From positions 100,408-164,407 of the forward strand of contig JAEUUY010000021.1 in NCBI GenBank assembly GCA_016787225.1: 64,000 bases of DNA, written 5' to 3'. This DNA comes from Chitinophagales bacterium. GTDB lineage: Bacteria; Bacteroidota; Bacteroidia; Chitinophagales; JADJOU01. The notes under the pieces are model-generated. The model was not told where the DNA came from, did no database searches, and saw only the letters and a list, made by a program, of their open reading frames with translations. The stretch's first letter is position 1. Each line of letters opens with the position of its first letter. Positions 3,005 through 59,435 of this stretch are shown one piece after another. A program made the translations under genes and the position numbers.

Positions 3005-4010
3005 CCTTAAATGGATTGATTGTATTTCGCATTAAATAAAATCCGAAAAGGGATGGAATTAATAGATTGATTATCCAGATCAAGTAATTAACTGCCATAA
3101 GCTGAGCAAAGTTCTTTGTATATAGACTGAATACGAACAAAACTAAATTAGCACGGATACCTACATCCAGAGCTCCCATAGAGGGTATGACAAACTGAGC
3201 TAAGAAATAAACACCGCAGAGAACATAAAATTCTAGTTGAGGGAAATCATTGAAGAAGATAAACATCAGTAACCAATACTGTGTCACGAAAATAAAAAAG
3301 CGAATAGAGCCTATTCCGATTAGCGTTAGTTTTGTAGCTAAATTATAATGTAAAAATTCCCCGATAGTTTCGAATATACTGCGCAGAGATTTTACTTTAG
3401 CGAGAAAGTTAATCATAATCTCTGGTTTGAGGTACATAAATAACCAAAATAGTACGTCTATGAGAGATATGAGAGATATGATACCTGCTATAGATAATCC
3501 GAAGGAAAAAATGTTTATTTTTTCTTGAGACAAGAATCCATGAAAATGAGCATAAGTTAGAAATATGAGCCCAACCAATGGGGATGCTACCTTTTGTACT
3601 ATACTGACATAATATGCAACTCCTGAACCATGTATCCGATTCTCTGATTTTAATACTAAAGGACGGCCAGTCAATTCACCTATACTGGCCGGGAAAATAA
3701 GATTTAAGGCATTACCATATAGGATACCGCGATAGGCTAACCAATAGCTAATTTTTTCAACACGCTGAACACAGAGATAAAACTTCAGTGTCTCGAATCC
3801 CCAATTGAAGAAAGTAAGAAATACAACAAAAAATAAATAGTATAATTTATCAGAAGCAAACTCGCGCTGAAATATTTCTAGGGTCTCCTGAAATCCTTTT
3901 TCGGAGAACTTTGAATACAAATTGTAGAATAGGAGAGCAGCTAAACCAAACTTTAAGATAATGACATTTATCTTCTTATGTTCTTTCCAAAAGGCTTTTA
4001 GTTTGTCCAA
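2985..4010 (-). CDS. flippase-like / lysylphosphatidylglycerol-synthase TM-region (UPF0104) family membrane protein
   Basis: 341 aa with about 8 TM segments. NALNLIFPASIGELTGRPLVL resembles the UPF0104 conserved loop. It is convergent with the ArnT-like gene and overlaps it by 20 nt. Confidence 0.45.
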   Translation of the reverse strand: MDKLKAFWKEHKKINVIILKFGLAALLFYNLYSKFSEKGFQETLEIFQREFASDKLYYLFFVVFLTFFNWGFETLKFYLCVQRVEKISYWLAYRGILYGNALNLIFPASIGELTGRPLVLKSENRIHGSGVAYYVSIVQKVASPLVGLIFLTYAHFHGFLSQEKINIFSFGLSIAGIISLISLIDVLFWLFMYLKPEIMINFLAKVKSLRSIFETIGEFLHYNLATKLTLIGIGSIRFFIFVTQYWLLMFIFFNDFPQLEFYVLCGVYFLAQFVIPSMGALDVGIRANLVLFVFSLYTKNFAQLMAVNYLIWIINLLIPSLFGFYLMRNTINPFKVKAGKL

Positions 4011-36873: not shown

Positions 36874-37100
36874 TTTTTAATAAAGAAATTTTAGTAGAAT
36901 CGCTAGTTTATCCTATGCCCTTTGGTAAGTATAAAAATGTGAAGGTATGCGATTTGCCAGTTTTCTACCTCGAATGGTTTCTAAATAAAGATGGTTTCCC
37001 CAAGGGAAAGCTTGGAGATATGATGGCGCTGATTTATCAAATCAAACTGAATGGGCTGGAGGAAATGATTGAGCAATTGAAAAAAGAATCTAAAAGCTAA
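36870..37100 (+). CDS. DUF3820-family protein
   Basis: MPFGKYKNVKVCDLPVFYLEWFLNKDGFPKGKLGDMMALIYQIKLNGL matches the DUF3820 signature (PFGKYKG..L.DLP..YL.WF...GFP.G.LG). The TTG start overlaps the upstream TGA. An internal ATG at 36915 is an alternative start. Confidence 0.65.
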   Translation: MIFNKEILVESLVYPMPFGKYKNVKVCDLPVFYLEWFLNKDGFPKGKLGDMMALIYQIKLNGLEEMIEQLKKESKS

Positions 37101-37145
37101 AATGCCGACCTTGAAAAGTCGGCATTCTGGGTGGGCGCTGAGGGA
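37099..37145. repeat. 47-bp direct repeat (hairpin plus tRNA-Val 3' end), left copy
   Basis: AAAATGCCGACCTTGAAAAGTCGGCATTCTGGGTGGGCGCTGAGGGA matches 37474..37520 at 45/47 positions. Confidence 0.8.
37101..37126 (-). terminator. hairpin AATGCCGAC/GTCGGCATT (T-run on the minus strand)
   Basis: It has a 9-bp stem. On the minus strand it is followed by TTTTAGCTTTT. It abuts the DUF3820 stop on the plus strand, so it may work in both directions. Confidence 0.5.
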
Positions 37146-37220
37146 TGCTGACGAAGCTTTGCTTGTCAGCATGCTGCACTCCCGATAATTATCGGGACGT
37201 CAGCATTCGAACTCAAGACC
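37132..37220 (-). pseudogene. tRNA-Val-like 3' remnant (T-arm plus acceptor 3' strand) interrupted by a 60-bp insert
   Basis: With 37145-37204 removed, the plus strand reads TGGGCGCTGAGGG|ATTCGAAC..GACC. This aligns with the intact tRNA at 37507-37535. Confidence 0.55.
37145..37204. repeat. 60-bp palindromic mini-element, copy 1 (inserted in the T-loop of the tRNA remnant)
   Basis: ATGCTGACG...CGTCAGC(AT) forms 7-9-bp terminal inverted repeats. Inside are a hairpin ATGCTGAC/GTCAGCAT and an 18-nt perfect palindrome TCCCGATAATTATCGGGA. It matches 37625..37684 at 56/60 positions. Confidence 0.75.
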
Positions 37221-37467
37221 TATCACAATATTTCGCAATAAAAATTTGGAGTCGTTCTCTAGATAAATTCTTTAATTTTTTCTCTAAAACAACTGCTTCT
37301 GCTCTTGTTGGTTTAGTAATAAATCCAACAAGAATCCAAGGAATATATTTGGATGTATAGTTTTCTAAGCCATTATTGTGCCTTTCAATTCTTGCTTTGA
37401 CATCATTGGTCTGACCAATATAATATTTGTCGTGCTTTTCTGAATAAAGAATATAAACGTAATACAT
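37213..37467 (-). CDS. small GIY-YIG nuclease-family protein (UPF0213/COG2827 type)
   Basis: 84 aa. MYYVYILYSEKHDKYYIGQTNDVKARIERHN contains the GIY...YIG motifs and the conserved R and N. Confidence 0.85.
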   Translation of the reverse strand: MYYVYILYSEKHDKYYIGQTNDVKARIERHNNGLENYTSKYIPWILVGFITKPTRAEAVVLEKKLKNLSRERLQIFIAKYCDRS

Positions 37468-37473
37468 AAATAA

Positions 37474-37520
37474 AAAATGCCGACCTTAAAAAGTCGGCAT
37501 TCTCGGTGGGCGCTGAGGGA
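37474..37520. repeat. 47-bp direct repeat (hairpin plus tRNA-Val 3' end), right copy
   Basis: It is the partner of 37099..37145. Confidence 0.8.
37476..37501 (-). terminator. intrinsic terminator after tRNA-Val
   Basis: On the minus strand AATGCCGAC-ttttttaag-GTCGGCATT is followed by TTTTATTT. Confidence 0.65.
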
Positions 37521-37581
37521 TTCGAACCCCCGACCCCCTCGGTGTAAACGAGATGCTCTGAACCAGCTGAGCTAAGCACCC
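37507..37581 (-). tRNA. tRNA-Val (anticodon TAC)
   Basis: A hand-folded cloverleaf works. The acceptor is GGGTGCT/AGCGCCC, the D-arm GCTC-AGCTGGTTCA-GAGC, and the anticodon arm TCTCG-TTTACAC-CGAGG. The variable loop is GGGTC and the T-arm GGGGG-TTCGAAT-CCCTC. The discriminator is A and no CCA is encoded. Confidence 0.9.
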
Positions 37582-37601
37582 TTTTTTTGTGCATCAAAGT
37601 T

Positions 37602-37708
37602 CTTCGTGTAAACGAGTTGCTCTGATGCTGACGAAACTTTGCTTTTCAGCATGCCGCACTCCCGATAATTATCGGGACGTCGGCAACCAGCTTTGAAGCT
37701 AAGCACCC
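37602..37708 (-). pseudogene. tRNA-Val-like 5' half (acceptor 5' strand, D-arm, anticodon arm) interrupted by a 60-bp insert
   Basis: The minus strand reads GGGTGCTTAGCT(tcaa)AGCTGGTT|insert|CAGAGCAACTCGTTTACACGAAG. This aligns with the first ~43 nt of the intact tRNA, including the TAC anticodon loop. No T-arm follows. Confidence 0.6.
37625..37684. repeat. 60-bp palindromic mini-element, copy 2 (inserted in the D-loop of the tRNA remnant)
   Basis: It matches copy 1 at 56/60 positions in the same orientation, 480 bp away. Confidence 0.75.
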
Positions 37709-37799
37709 TTTGAATTCGTTCGACCTTCGGACAAAGTCCGTAGCCTTTTTCAAAAGCGAGTGCAAATATAAAGATATTTTATAAATGCACAAGACTTTT

Positions 37800-38129
37800 T
37801 TAAATTAATTCTCTCACCTCGATTTTATCGCCAATCGAGAATGTAGGGCATTGTTTGCCTATCTCCAGTGCCGCTTCAAAACTCTCTGCCTGAATGACAT
37901 ATAAGCCTCCAAAAGCAATTTCTGGATAGGGTATTTCTTTCGTTACTATTTCTCCATCGATCATTTCTAATAGGCAACCTTCGCCATTTAACCCGTAACC
38001 ATTGATAAATATACCTTTTGAAGCGAGCTCTTGTGCCCATTGGATATGTAATTGAATGATTTCTTTTAATTCGTTGTCTGGTCGTGAGGTGCGAATATCT
38101 TCACGAATGATGAGGATGTATTTCTTCAT
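37800..38129 (-). CDS. YciI-family (YCII/DGPF domain) protein
   Basis: 109 aa. The pattern ...GGLYVIQAESFEAALEIGKQCP....IEVRELI fits the YCII domain C-terminal signature. Confidence 0.6.
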   Translation of the reverse strand: MKKYILIIREDIRTSRPDNELKEIIQLHIQWAQELASKGIFINGYGLNGEGCLLEMIDGEIVTKEIPYPEIAFGGLYVIQAESFEAALEIGKQCPTFSIGDKIEVRELI

Positions 38130-59271: not shown

Positions 59272-59435
59272 CGTTGAACCCGAATCTTGCAGTTCAAAGT
59301 TATTGAACTGCAGACCGACGAAGAAAATCTAAACATCTAAGTAGTATGATATGGAAGATTTTCTTGTTGGGGTTAACCCTGACATCCTGACGAGTATCTG
59401 TCAGGATCGTCAGCCCTCCGGGCAGATTTTGCATT

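Follow-up and report, generated by a model that had tools for sequence, protein, structure and literature searches.

Genomic islands and prophages of the integrase type integrate at the 3' ends of tRNA genes, where they are flanked by repeats of the tRNA 3' end and regenerate the tRNA gene. In integron cassettes (an ORF plus attC), REP/RAYT systems and IS200/IS605 elements, palindromes act as cis elements that co-evolve with an enzyme. Among the GIY-YIG nucleases, SLX1 cuts branched and hairpin DNA without sequence preference, while for the UPF0213 proteins, to our knowledge, neither a function nor a genomic association has been established. The mORFs of fungal mitochondria carry a replacement 3' end, as described for atp6 of Allomyces and for atp6, atp9, cox2 and nad3 of Glomus (PMC3630166). 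The free-standing GIY-YIG homing endonuclease SegB, encoded in the tRNA gene cluster of T-even phages, cleaves within tRNA-containing sequence and drives the tandem amplification of tRNA and segB (PMC13096335). The GUCCY-hairpin motif (Weinberg et al., 2010), a short hairpin that recurs in Bacteroidetes and Proteobacteria, is not in Rfam, and the supplementary text notes for it a 'possible overrepresentation' of COG2827 (URI/GIY-YIG) genes nearby; its description gives no link to tRNA genes, duplications or mobility (PMC2864571). It is the only earlier hint found that may link hairpins to small GIY-YIG genes, and no description of a tRNA-linked small GIY-YIG arrangement was found in the literature on GIY-YIG/UPF0213/YhbQ/COG2827 proteins and Bacteroidetes tRNA genes.

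The locus described here occupies the 3' part of a resident tRNA-Val(TAC) gene on the minus strand of a Chitinophagales contig, within a window of 64,000 nucleotides (the whole stretch of DNA analysed). In the direction of transcription it comprises the following features:

37763..37770, minus strand: Bacteroidota-type -7 promoter box (TAtaTTTG) of the tRNA-Val transcription unit, read from the sequence
37762..37709, minus strand: conserved leader after the promoter box (sequence and comparison across loci)
37602..37708, minus strand: upstream remnant R1 (direct repeats D3 and D4 with the intact tRNA)
37708..37686, minus strand: R1 part 1, tRNA-Val acceptor 5' strand and 5' part of the D-arm
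37626..37685, minus strand: X1, double-hairpin module in the R1 D-loop (match to RNA model R1, fold z-score, repeat D1)
37625..37602, minus strand: R1 part 2, D-stem 3' strand and decayed anticodon arm, after X1
37582..37601, minus strand: 20-nt spacer from R1 to the intact tRNA (sequence; conserved in L001 and L093)
37505..37581, minus strand: intact tRNA-Val(TAC) (ARAGORN, Rfam tRNA, repeat D2)
37473..37504, minus strand: term1, cassette-borne terminator-like hairpin and T-run (terminator scan)
37213..37467, minus strand: GIY-YIG nuclease ORF of 84 aa, UPF0213/YhbQ/SLX1-like clade, catalytic domain only (Pfam PF01541)
37205..37220, minus strand: t', copy of part of the variable loop, T-stem 5' strand and T-loop, GGTCTTGAGTTCGAAT (sequence)
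37145..37204, minus strand: X2, double-hairpin module splitting the displaced T-arm after the T-loop (match to RNA model R1, fold z-score, covariation)
37129..37144, minus strand: displaced tRNA 3' end, with T-stem 3' strand, acceptor 3' strand and ACC(C) (repeat D2)
37099..37128, minus strand: second copy of the term1 hairpin (repeat D2, ORF table, comparison with L093 and L001)

The cassette itself (~375 bp in the window, 356 bp in the related locus L001) consists, in order, of a tRNA 3'-end copy, a terminator-like hairpin, the GIY-YIG ORF, a partial T-arm copy and the double hairpin X, with the displaced native 3' end just past X. The left copy of its bounding direct repeat is the final 16 nt of the intact tRNA-Val, CCCTCAGCGCCCACC(G), and the right copy is the displaced 3' end; the tRNA-Val gene remains intact because the cassette supplies a 3' end. 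ARAGORN places the intact gene at 37581..37505, and the Rfam tRNA model at 37581..37507 (64.3 bits, E=2e-13). The term1 hairpin carries an X-like core (TGCCGAC...GTCGGCA) followed by a T-run that ends a few nt before the GIY-YIG ATG, while at the other end of the ORF the last codons and the stop codon (37215..37213) overlap the T-arm copy t', counterparts of which (cognate T-arm pieces) are present at other loci. The second term1 copy abuts the stop codon (37098-37100) of the convergent QSregVF_b gene, and compared with L093 and L001 the window lacks the native term2 and ~100 nt of spacer here. Promoter and leader are kept in L001, L005, L006 and L093. The -7 box was named after TAnnTTTG, which we take to be the promoter consensus of Bacteroidota; no such box was read between the tRNA and the GIY-YIG ATG, and the top match of a sigma-70 scan, which is unsuited to Bacteroidota, was rejected as a promoter of the ORF, lying on the opposite strand within it. 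The initial annotation had likewise given the ORF no promoter box, and its proposal that the ORF is expressed by read-through of the tRNA terminator fits the family, many members of which have only 5-30 nt, without a hairpin, from tRNA to ORF.

All seven elements which that annotation had set out (a 5' tRNA half, a spacer, the intact tRNA, a hairpin, the ORF, a 3' tRNA part and a second hairpin) were found on the minus strand at those positions by sequence, ARAGORN, Rfam and Pfam. The 47-bp direct repeat it had reported (45/47 identical) is real and measures 48 nt at 96% identity (D2, 37099-37146 and 37474-37521, corresponding to the tRNA 3' end plus hairpin). Both tRNA pieces that it had described are also present; what it overlooked is that one and the same 60-nt double hairpin, X, interrupts them both, in the D-loop upstream and in the T-loop downstream, and that the 'halves' are 107 and 89 nt long because of it. 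X1 (37685..37626) is inserted in the D-loop at GGTT^CAGAGC and X2 (37204..37145) after the T-loop at GTTCGAAT^CCCTC. The annotation had made its reading depend on covariance models recognising the remnants as tRNA-derived, and the Rfam tRNA model reports neither, even at E<=10 for the window locus; the remnants escape it because they are truncated and split by X, which makes the test too strict. The probable tRNA origin of both is drawn from direct repeats shared with the intact gene, which besides D2 include a 20-nt repeat at 95% (R1 D-stem 3' strand plus anticodon arm) and a 15-nt repeat at 100% (acceptor 5' strand).

X1 and X2 form a 62-nt direct repeat (D1) of 94% identity with a spacing of 480 nt, and a 26-nt core of X occurs twice in identical form in the window, where chance would give 0.00 copies. 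A covariance model of X (RNA model R1, distinct from the upstream remnant R1) matches X1 with 37.6 bits (E=3e-8) and X2 at 37146-37205 with 41-43 bits (E ~1e-9); the fold z-scores are -4.6 and -7.0 respectively, and hairpin 1 of X1 contains a nested 18-nt palindrome, TCCCGATAATTATCGGGA. Across the family X measures 40-66 nt, 97.4% of the cells of its alignment are paired, compensatory changes occur in 13 of 18 pairs and the covariation score is 0.526 vs 0.147 in shuffles. It folds equally well on both strands, and G-U pairs make up only ~1-2%, a scarcity that makes X unlikely to be an RNA element. Its position differs by lineage (53/54, 60/61, after the T-stem, in the variable loop or in the D-loop). 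Searches at E<=10 for the window locus and at E<=1 for 12 related loci assigned no Rfam family to X or the remnants, tRNA being the only family returned and this on intact genes. An independent high-copy MITE was rejected, with only two copies of X in the 64-kb window and with X standing, in 83 loci, almost only beside GIY-YIG ORFs or tRNA remnants. An archaeal-type BHB intron, a split tRNA and a group I intron were discarded for a bacterial host and a module of 40-66 nt without intron features, which also stands outside a tRNA context as the end module of a cassette. The Pedo-repair motif, published as a junction of three stems that precedes radC operons in a single strain of Pedobacter, and the GUCCY-hairpin, COG2827-associated but of a different sequence pattern, were not accepted as X either.

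The 'empty' tRNA-Val site that the initial annotation had proposed to seek in relatives is found in a related contig, L093, where YCII, promoter, leader, R1, tRNA-Val, CCCACCC, term2 and QSregVF_b follow one another without a GIY-YIG gene. Term1 follows the tRNA in L001, L005 and L006, whereas L093 has a different hairpin there, term2, which is native to the empty site and in L001 and L005 comes after the downstream remnant. As the nuclease gene is missing from the same site in L093, the cassette represents an insertion/deletion polymorphism of ~356-375 bp whose edges are the 16-nt tRNA 3' end, and only that 3' end is replaced or duplicated by it. Presence or absence at a conserved site with precise boundaries, as expected of homing endonucleases, is thus seen between L093 on the one hand and L001, L005 and the window on the other, and native term2 beyond the downstream remnant in L001 and L005 is what a 3'-end replacement of the mORF type should leave. 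A search with the neighbouring QSregVF_b protein for further empty or filled alleles returned only contigs ending within the locus. These alleles do not agree with a unit of replacement tRNA, terminator and nuclease landing between the halves of an older tRNA, as first suggested, because L093, which has no nuclease, already possesses remnant, tRNA and terminator. Nor do the two remnants add up to one tRNA, since the upstream remnant and the cassette each occur alone: R1 is found in L001 and in the cassette-free L093, and it is absent from the filled allele L005. The upstream remnant goes back to an earlier, separate event of this family and survives as a scar in what is now the pre-tRNA leader, and R1-like 5' fragments with a D-loop hairpin also occur at L084 and L067. 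The alternative of the initial annotation, in which the nuclease colonised a tandem array in decay, may apply to this remnant and to nothing beyond it.

Horizontal movement of the cassette is seen both between diverged genomes and from one tRNA gene to another. In the comparison of the window with L001, the flanking genes are strongly diverged (dS 1.0 for QSregVF_b and 2.75 for a 323-aa gene) and promoter plus leader share 78% identity, whereas R1 (96%), term1 (97%) and the GIY-YIG ORF (97.2%, dS 0.083) are nearly the same; a dS of 0.08 in the segment from R1 to GIY-YIG against flanking values of at least 1 indicates recent horizontal exchange. The control pair L001/L005 is concordant, with dS 0.24-0.25 for the flanks and 0.27 for the GIY-YIG gene. 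The upstream remnant, though separate, was therefore co-transferred with the cassette between two lineages. The loci L028 and L029 have the same cassette at tRNA-Leu(CAG) and tRNA-Leu(CAA); identity is 89-95% within the cassette but only 35-39% in the flanks and 18% in the anticodon arm. Both pairs (window/L001 and L028/L029) display the discordant divergence that horizontal spread of a homing endonuclease gene with co-conversion of its flanks would produce.

The arrangement recurs in 82 non-redundant Bacteroidota loci with a homologous GIY-YIG ORF of 81-95 aa. In 66 of the 82, the first GIY-YIG copy is preceded on the same strand by a tRNA gene whose end lies no more than 200 nt away, with nine specificities represented (Val, Ser, Leu, Pro, His, Lys, Asp, Arg and Gly), and model R1 matches X directly after the ORF in ~63. 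At most loci a cognate T-arm remnant is split by an X of 40-66 nt, often in tandem arrays (for example, four copies in L008 and L072 and three in L065), some of which end in truncated copies, and the T-arm piece and 3' end beside X always match the local tRNA. Several cassettes of different clades can share one genome, as do L065 and L071 on contigs of one MAG. The survey that the initial annotation had recommended thus places small GIY-YIG genes directly downstream of tRNA genes and upstream of a copy of the 3' end of that same tRNA, so that its idea of a homing-like, tRNA-associated cassette does not describe a one-off. No tyrosine or serine integrase is present between the repeats, where GIY-YIG is the only ORF, or in the neighbouring gene tables examined; the arrays have no integrase beside them and every unit encodes GIY-YIG, which is not the composition of an integron. 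Among 2.9 million viral contigs only two distant relatives (36-38% identity) were found, and a phage origin was rejected accordingly. The cassette is a widespread, probably selfish mini-element of Bacteroidota, apparently undescribed.

The 84-aa product (ORF 37467..37213) matches the Pfam GIY-YIG family PF01541 with E=2.8e-14, and it has the motifs, the conserved Arg, the metal-binding Glu, the Asn and the beta-beta-alpha-beta-alpha fold of the superfamily, with Y5, Y16/G18, R26, E62 and N67 invariant in 22 homologues. The AlphaFold2 model (pLDDT 93.6) has the secondary-structure order E-E-H-E-H-H. Profile searches against the PDB (1ZG2 E=1.4e-10, 1YWL E=1e-7, SLX1 E=1e-3, I-TevI E=0.1) and Foldseek TM scores (0.63-0.71 for 1ZG2 and Slx1 vs 0.52 for UvrC and 0.49 for I-TevI) place it in the UPF0213/YhbQ/SLX1-like clade, closer there than to UvrC or I-TevI. 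It is not an SLX1 ortholog by domain content, as it stops right after the nuclease domain without a zinc-finger/RING, and throughout the family (81-95 aa) only the catalytic domain is present, with no separate DNA-binding domain of the I-TevI or Seg type. The ORF is under purifying selection (dN/dS ~0.1). In one protein clade R/K is replaced by T/S at position 70 and by D at position 72 (D72 in 9/9 members vs 0/73 others), and the hairpin core reads GAG/CTC instead of GAC/GTC in all six scorable members. The core triplet of X thus changes together with nuclease residues 70 and 72, and the pairing of R70/R72 with GAC/GTC vs T70/D72 with GAG/CTC is a directly testable rule of protein–DNA recognition.

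The locus is probably a selfish homing-type mini-cassette built on an SLX1/YhbQ-type GIY-YIG nuclease, whose cutting mode we infer. The ORF would be transcribed by read-through from the strong tRNA promoter, and the nuclease would nick or break, in or near the T-arm, a tRNA gene without a cassette. Repair from a cassette-bearing copy would then use the tRNA sequence as the left homology arm and the tRNA 3'-end copy as the right one, and since both arms derive from the tRNA the process should be independent of genomic context. Flanking sequence (here the upstream remnant) would be co-converted, and tandem arrays would arise by out-of-register repair. X may be the cis-acting DNA partner of the nuclease, whether as binding site, cleavage site or block, and because it splits the duplicated T-arm, the displaced copy would no longer be a target, a pseudo-tRNA or a long recombination substrate. 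Several points weigh against homing. The regenerated intact tRNA still has the presumed target, which leaves immunity of the occupied allele without an explanation; the constant match to the local tRNA needs either tRNA-specific element lineages or gene conversion that often acts locally; X does not keep one position across lineages; a gene useful to the host would likewise be near-ubiquitous in Bacteroidota and under strong purifying selection; and the empty site may be a precise deletion between the 16-nt repeats instead of a site never occupied. Moreover, an 84-aa catalytic domain that lacks a DNA-binding domain could hardly cleave a tRNA gene sequence-specifically unless a partner or a structural cue guided it. 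More tentatively, mobile elements of a new class may be at work: a minimal SLX1-like nuclease without a DNA-binding domain would find its targets via DNA structure, the cues being the co-evolving X (as cruciform or single strand) and the cloverleaf-like displaced strand of transcribed tRNA genes. Such an element would use the tRNA promoter and could also amplify host tRNA genes. This proposal, doubtful as it is, would account for the colonisation of any tRNA identity, for hairpin insertions in the two loops (D and T) that come together at the tRNA elbow and for the avoidance of G-U pairs by the hairpins.

Purifying selection at dN/dS ~0.1 on invariant catalytic residues, the SLX1-like fold typical of structure-specific nucleases and a near-universal association with tRNA promoters, with probable co-transcription, would also be expected of a domesticated host factor. 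Such a nuclease would serve highly transcribed tRNA genes (R-loops, cruciforms, transcription-replication conflicts, tRNA-gene amplification) or act on RNA, with T-arm, X and 3' end as a cis-regulatory or 3'-processing element and the duplications as by-products; SegB is a precedent for adaptive nuclease-driven tRNA amplification (PMC13096335). This is unlikely, given that close relatives differ in presence or absence of the cassette, that horizontal exchange is confined to the cassette tract, that arrays end in truncated copies, that L065 and L071 combine different clades in one genome and that the scarcity of G-U pairs contradicts an RNA role for X. It is quite improbable that the unit is a small circular or single-stranded cassette put into tRNA 3' ends in trans by a tyrosine integrase, an Xer-type or an integron-like enzyme, which would use folded hairpins as at attC, with X as the recombination site and GIY-YIG as cargo or helper. 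The tRNA 3'-end repeats on both sides do recall attL/attR of tRNA-integrating elements, and promoterless ORF-plus-hairpin units in same-orientation arrays behind an upstream promoter, with strict Watson-Crick hairpins on both strands, would suit it too; but no recombinase gene lies beside any examined locus (gene tables, window ORFs), the arrays hold GIY-YIG ORFs only, and the hairpin core co-varies with the GIY-YIG protein and with no other. A locus without mobility, that is, a decayed tandem tRNA-Val array shaped by local duplications and hairpin slippage beside a chance small nuclease gene, can be dismissed as extremely improbable, for although the upstream remnant resembles a decayed tRNA copy and unequal crossing-over can yield direct repeats, this architecture recurs in many families, at tRNA genes that cover nine specificities, L028 and L029 share the cassette but have unrelated flanks, cassette and flank dS are discordant, and X is conserved and covarying.

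A homing-type cassette would explain thousands of Bacteroidota genes labelled only 'GIY-YIG nuclease family protein', the many pseudo-tRNA fragments and hairpins that accompany these genes and the assembly breaks often met at tRNA loci, and would make the tRNA genes of these bacteria recombination hot spots of variable copy number. The mitochondrial '3'-end replacement' elements and phage SegB would gain an analogue on bacterial chromosomes, whose nuclease would be the smallest yet connected with behaviour of this kind, and a compact nuclease directed by DNA structure or hairpins could interest technology.

Compared with integrase-type islands, the cassette is also flanked by tRNA 3'-end direct repeats and regenerates the tRNA gene from its own sequence, but it has no integrase, measures only ~0.36 kb and has a duplicated T-arm broken by hairpins. 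As in integron cassettes, promoterless ORF-plus-palindrome units are arrayed behind one promoter; unlike integrons, REP/RAYT and IS200/IS605, there is no tyrosine recombinase or HUH transposase, and each unit encodes the same nuclease and is tied to tRNA ends. The best sequence and fold matches are UPF0213/YhbQ (PDB 1ZG2, 1YWL) and the nuclease domain of SLX1; SLX1 has a C-terminal zinc-finger/RING domain and needs SLX4, both of which are missing here. With SegB the cassette shares a GIY-YIG nuclease gene among tRNA genes and tandem units of tRNA plus nuclease gene, whereas SegB is phage-borne, has no hairpin module or split T-arm remnant and, at ~220 aa with a DNA-binding region, is much larger than the 84-aa nuclease. 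The GUCCY-hairpin is a single hairpin of ~10 bp with 5' GUC and 3' CY (published sequences GUC...CUA; PMC2864571), while X has GAC/GTC inside two adjacent stems. Like the mORFs, the cassette combines a free-standing endonuclease ORF (GIY-YIG in atp9) that lies close to the 3' end of an essential gene, a 3'-end copy whose insertion preserves gene function, the native 3' end as a remnant downstream of the ORF, evidence of horizontal origin and co-transcription of gene and ORF, which is presumed here (PMC3630166). It differs from them in that the host gene is a bacterial chromosomal tRNA gene and not a mitochondrial protein-coding gene, that the nuclease has 84 aa, belongs to the SLX1/YhbQ clade and has no DNA-binding domain, and that a conserved double hairpin splits the displaced remnant and tandem arrays are common.

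The tRNA-Val locus of the window, read on the minus strand, is organised as follows.

37770 to 37763, minus strand: TAtaTTTG, a -7 box of the Bacteroidota type; the leader downstream of it measures about 55 nt
37708 to 37602, minus strand: R1, the upstream tRNA-Val fragment
37685 to 37626, minus strand: X1, the first copy of a double-hairpin module (X), in the D-loop of R1 at GGTT^CAGAGC
Minus strand: 20-nt spacer between R1 and the intact tRNA
37581 to 37505, minus strand: intact tRNA-Val(TAC) (ARAGORN; Rfam tRNA, 64.3 bits)
37504 to 37473, minus strand: term1, a hairpin with a T-run (terminator scan)
37467 to 37213, minus strand: 84-aa ORF (Pfam GIY-YIG, E=2.8e-14)
Minus strand: T-arm copy GGTCTTGAGTTCGAAT, which includes the stop codon of the ORF
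37204 to 37145, minus strand: X2, 3' of the T-loop at GTTCGAAT^CCCTC
37144 to 37129, minus strand: tRNA 3' end CCCTCAGCGCCCACCC
37128 to 37099, minus strand: second hairpin copy, abutting the stop codon of the convergent QSregVF_b gene

The layout described in the initial annotation was confirmed, and it is extended by X, since the same 60-nt module breaks up both tRNA remnants. The repeat finder returned the tRNA 3' end plus hairpin as a 48-nt direct repeat (96% identity), X1 and X2 as a 62-nt direct repeat (94% identity), and repeats of 20 and 15 nt linking R1 with the intact tRNA gene. A 26-nt core of X has two exact copies in the window against 0.00 expected by chance, and the fold of X is a pair of neighbouring hairpins (z-score -4.6 for X1 and -7.0 for X2). 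The QSregVF_b stop codon (37098-37100) directly touches the foot of the second hairpin copy, which may act as a bidirectional terminator. Two contigs with the window's own QSregVF_b protein (L091 and L092) are independent assemblies of the same organism that break less than about 85 nt from the GIY-YIG ORF, as expected if the repeats of the locus defeat short-read assembly.

Close homologues of the GIY-YIG protein occur in Chitinophagales metagenome-assembled genomes, among them the related loci L001 (96% protein identity) and L005 (90%), which have the carA...mutS neighbourhood in common. L001 shows the order R1, intact tRNA, term1, GIY-YIG, T-arm copy, X and 3' end, followed by a different terminator, term2 (GTCATCTCTTTTGAGGTGAC plus T-run), and L005 carries the cassette and lacks R1. 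An empty site, L093, was retrieved from metagenomes with promoter and leader, both conserved, as query; its order is YCII, promoter, leader, R1, intact tRNA-Val, CCCACCC, term2 and QSregVF_b, and the GIY-YIG gene is absent. Comparison of these three layouts establishes that the cassette (356 bp in L001; repeat spacing of 375 bp in the window) is an indel bounded by the 16-nt tRNA 3' end, and that the native terminator of the site is the one 3' of the downstream remnant. The initial annotation had proposed a homing-like cassette and had read the two remnants as halves of one older tRNA; the first part is supported and the second is contradicted, since R1 occurs without the cassette in L093 and the cassette without R1 in L005, so that the two occur independently. 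The window lacks term2 and a spacer of about 100 nt and has a second copy of term1 in their place, which suggests that an array of two units once stood here and was later shortened by a deletion. The surroundings of the window tRNA-Val gene are an indel hot spot. L001 and L005 have two flanking genes, a Band_7 gene ahead of the tRNA promoter and, on the downstream side, a DUF2007-like gene, that are missing from the window (37700-37800 and 37060-37130) and from L093.

R1 has parallels elsewhere: an upstream pseudo-tRNA-Ser with X in its D-loop (L084), upstream pseudo-tRNAs with X in the T-arm (L081, L035 and L067), and, also in L067, 5' fragments of tRNA-Leu in tandem whose D-loop holds an 18-nt palindrome. 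R1 therefore represents a recurrent type of scar at GIY-YIG loci, and today it is a mere part of the pre-tRNA leader.

Evidence for movement comes from the divergence of the segments along the locus.

Divergence between window and L001, and between L001 and L005, by segment
QSregVF_b gene: window/L001, dS 1.0, 81% nucleotide identity; L001/L005, dS 0.24
323-aa gene: window/L001, dS 2.75, 77% nucleotide identity; L001/L005, dS 0.25
Promoter and leader: window/L001, 78% identity; L001/L005, 100% identity
R1: window/L001, 96% identity; absent from L005
term1: window/L001, 97% identity; L001/L005, 100% identity
GIY-YIG ORF: window/L001, 97.2% nucleotide identity, dS 0.083; L001/L005, dS 0.27

Cassette and flank divergence are concordant in the control pair L001/L005 and discordant between the window and L001, and thus two well-diverged genomes have recently exchanged the tract that begins at R1 and extends through the ORF, a pattern expected for homing with co-conversion of flanks. 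The tract probably passed from the lineage of the window to that of L001, because L093, which is free of the cassette, has an R1 that has diverged on its own (80% identity to the window R1), and L005, the close relative of L001, has none. Additionally, one cassette is found in two species at two different tRNA genes, tRNA-Leu(CAG) and tRNA-Leu(CAA) (L028 and L029). The two copies share 95% identity over term1 and ORF, 89% over T-arm copy, X and 3' end, and 94% over the 3' part of the tRNA, while the anticodon arms (18%) and both flanks (35-39%) are identical at random level only.

When one genome per species was scanned, at least 463 relatives came up, of which the best 80 were retrieved; the set analysed comprises 82 non-redundant loci, the window included. 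In 66 of the 82, the first GIY-YIG copy has a same-strand tRNA gene upstream whose end lies no more than 200 nt away, usually 30-50 nt, and the remaining loci lie mostly at contig ends or behind a pseudo-tRNA. The associated tRNAs comprise Val, Ser (three anticodons), Leu (three), Pro, His, Lys, Asp, Arg and Gly. What follows the ORF in most loci is sequence of the cognate tRNA in two pieces: 7-18 nt from the 5' strand of the T-stem and, beyond an insert of 40-66 nt, 13-23 nt that take in T-loop, T-stem 3' strand and acceptor 3' strand. The remnants agree in every case with the tRNA of their own locus. The insert most often lies at 53/54, the boundary between T-stem 5' strand and T-loop, but after the T-loop in the lineage of the window, and a few lineages have it 3' of the T-stem or within the variable loop. 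The protein neighbor-joining tree, of low resolution given some 80 residues, clusters partially by tRNA type, and Val, His, Ser and Lys each appear at several places in it, so that tRNA targets switch over evolutionary time. In several members the gap between tRNA and ORF is just 5-24 nt and free of a hairpin, which supports co-transcription of the ORF with the tRNA. A search of viral contigs found the family essentially missing from them. Some loci have another order, with the GIY-YIG ORF followed by an intact tRNA gene, mainly in an Arg-associated protein clade termed 'NTEDL' (L037 2004-2343; L063 1995-2357) and also in L035 (2001-2389); the hairpins lie 3' of that tRNA in L037 and within the upstream pseudo-tRNA in L035. 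Another locus, L089, from a Sphingobacteriaceae MAG, matches the Rhizobiales sRNA family Atu_At1 of Rfam at 3540-3646 (65.5 bits against a gathering threshold of 60), an unexpected taxon for it.

Tandem arrays of the cassette are frequent: L008 has four complete units that repeat every 360 bp and a fifth that is truncated, L072 has four units, L065 three and a truncated copy, and L010 and L016 each two and a truncated copy. The arrays typically end in a GIY-YIG copy truncated on its 3' side, which keeps the first 30-60 codons before unrelated sequence (L008 3361-3462; L010 3750-3896; L016 2735-2920; L065 2395-2613; L073 2762-2881), and this polarity is left unaccounted for by the homing model.

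The two helices of X are supported by an alignment of 28 copies from seven tRNA types, in which 97.4% of cells are paired (75% in shuffles; 25-48% with partners slid), 13 of 18 pairs show compensatory changes and the covariation score is 0.526 (0.147 in shuffles). Each stem closes at its inner end with invariant triplets, GAC...GTC. G-U pairs are nearly lacking (4 of 491 alignment cells; 2.2% of predicted pairs) and both strands fold equally well (-28.2 and -28.3 kcal/mol), and this fits X as a DNA structure, hairpin or cruciform, better than X as an RNA element. In the window, a covariance model made from the same alignment detects X1, X2 and, besides them, one weak orphan at 59.4 kb; it places a copy directly 3' of the GIY-YIG ORF in about 63 of the 82 loci; no Rfam family matched X in the window locus (E<=10) or in twelve related loci (E<=1). 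The orphan, at 59379-59413, is an intergenic nested hairpin with CTGAC...GTCAG cores (15 bits, E=0.03). It is flanked by GGGGTTAA and CCCTCC, which together look similar to a T-arm that has been split, and it may be a solo remnant that has decayed. A perfect 18-nt palindrome, TCCCGATAATTATCGGGA, lies inside hairpin 1 of both window copies (37180-37197 and 37660-37677) and recurs in L005 (3272-3287), in the anticodon region of the L081 pseudo-tRNA (1779-1794) and in the D-loop of the L067 pseudo-tRNA fragment (1609-1624), the latter two being unrelated Bacteroidota MAGs; it is missing from L093 and from the downstream X of L001. It looks like a second, still smaller insertable palindrome.

The loci without a match to the X model belong largely to one protein clade, in which the hairpin core is GAG...CTC (six of six scorable loci) and the protein motif LKNLS(R/K)E(R/K)L is changed to LKNLN(T/S)EDL, D72 being present in 9/9 members and 0/73 others. 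The change of motif and hairpin core is one evolutionary event, and it points to a core that may be recognised directly by the C-terminal helix of the protein.

The window protein consists of the catalytic domain alone, and Y5, Y16, R26, E62 and N67 are invariant among its homologues. For its gene, dN/dS is about 0.1 when lineages are compared, and about 0.8 for copies of one array. The closest solved structures to its AlphaFold2 model (pLDDT 93.6) are UPF0213 BH0048 (1ZG2) and the Slx1 nuclease domain, with TM scores of 0.67-0.71 and rmsd of 1.4-2.2 A, and UvrC and I-TevI rank behind them. Slx1 is a structure-specific nuclease that acts on branched DNA.

The cassette is thus an indel that moves horizontally and between tRNA genes, forms arrays, and has changed nuclease and hairpin jointly; it is best supported as a homing-type selfish element, a free-standing homing endonuclease cassette with unusual features. 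The ORF would be expressed by read-through and its product would break unoccupied tRNA genes at the T-arm; an occupied copy would then serve for the repair, with tRNA sequence providing both homology arms. X would be the cis partner of the nuclease and a spacer that inactivates the displaced T-arm.

A description of the arrangement of tRNA, GIY-YIG gene and X was not found in the journals that the literature search covered, and its novelty is provisional. The sole earlier hint found of a link between a hairpin and COG2827 genes is a remark on a 'GUCCY hairpin' (PMC2864571 supplement), a motif that differs from X. The closest systems to the cassette are the fungal mitochondrial endonuclease ORFs that come with an inserted gene 3' end (PMC3630166) and the phage endonuclease SegB (PMC13096335).
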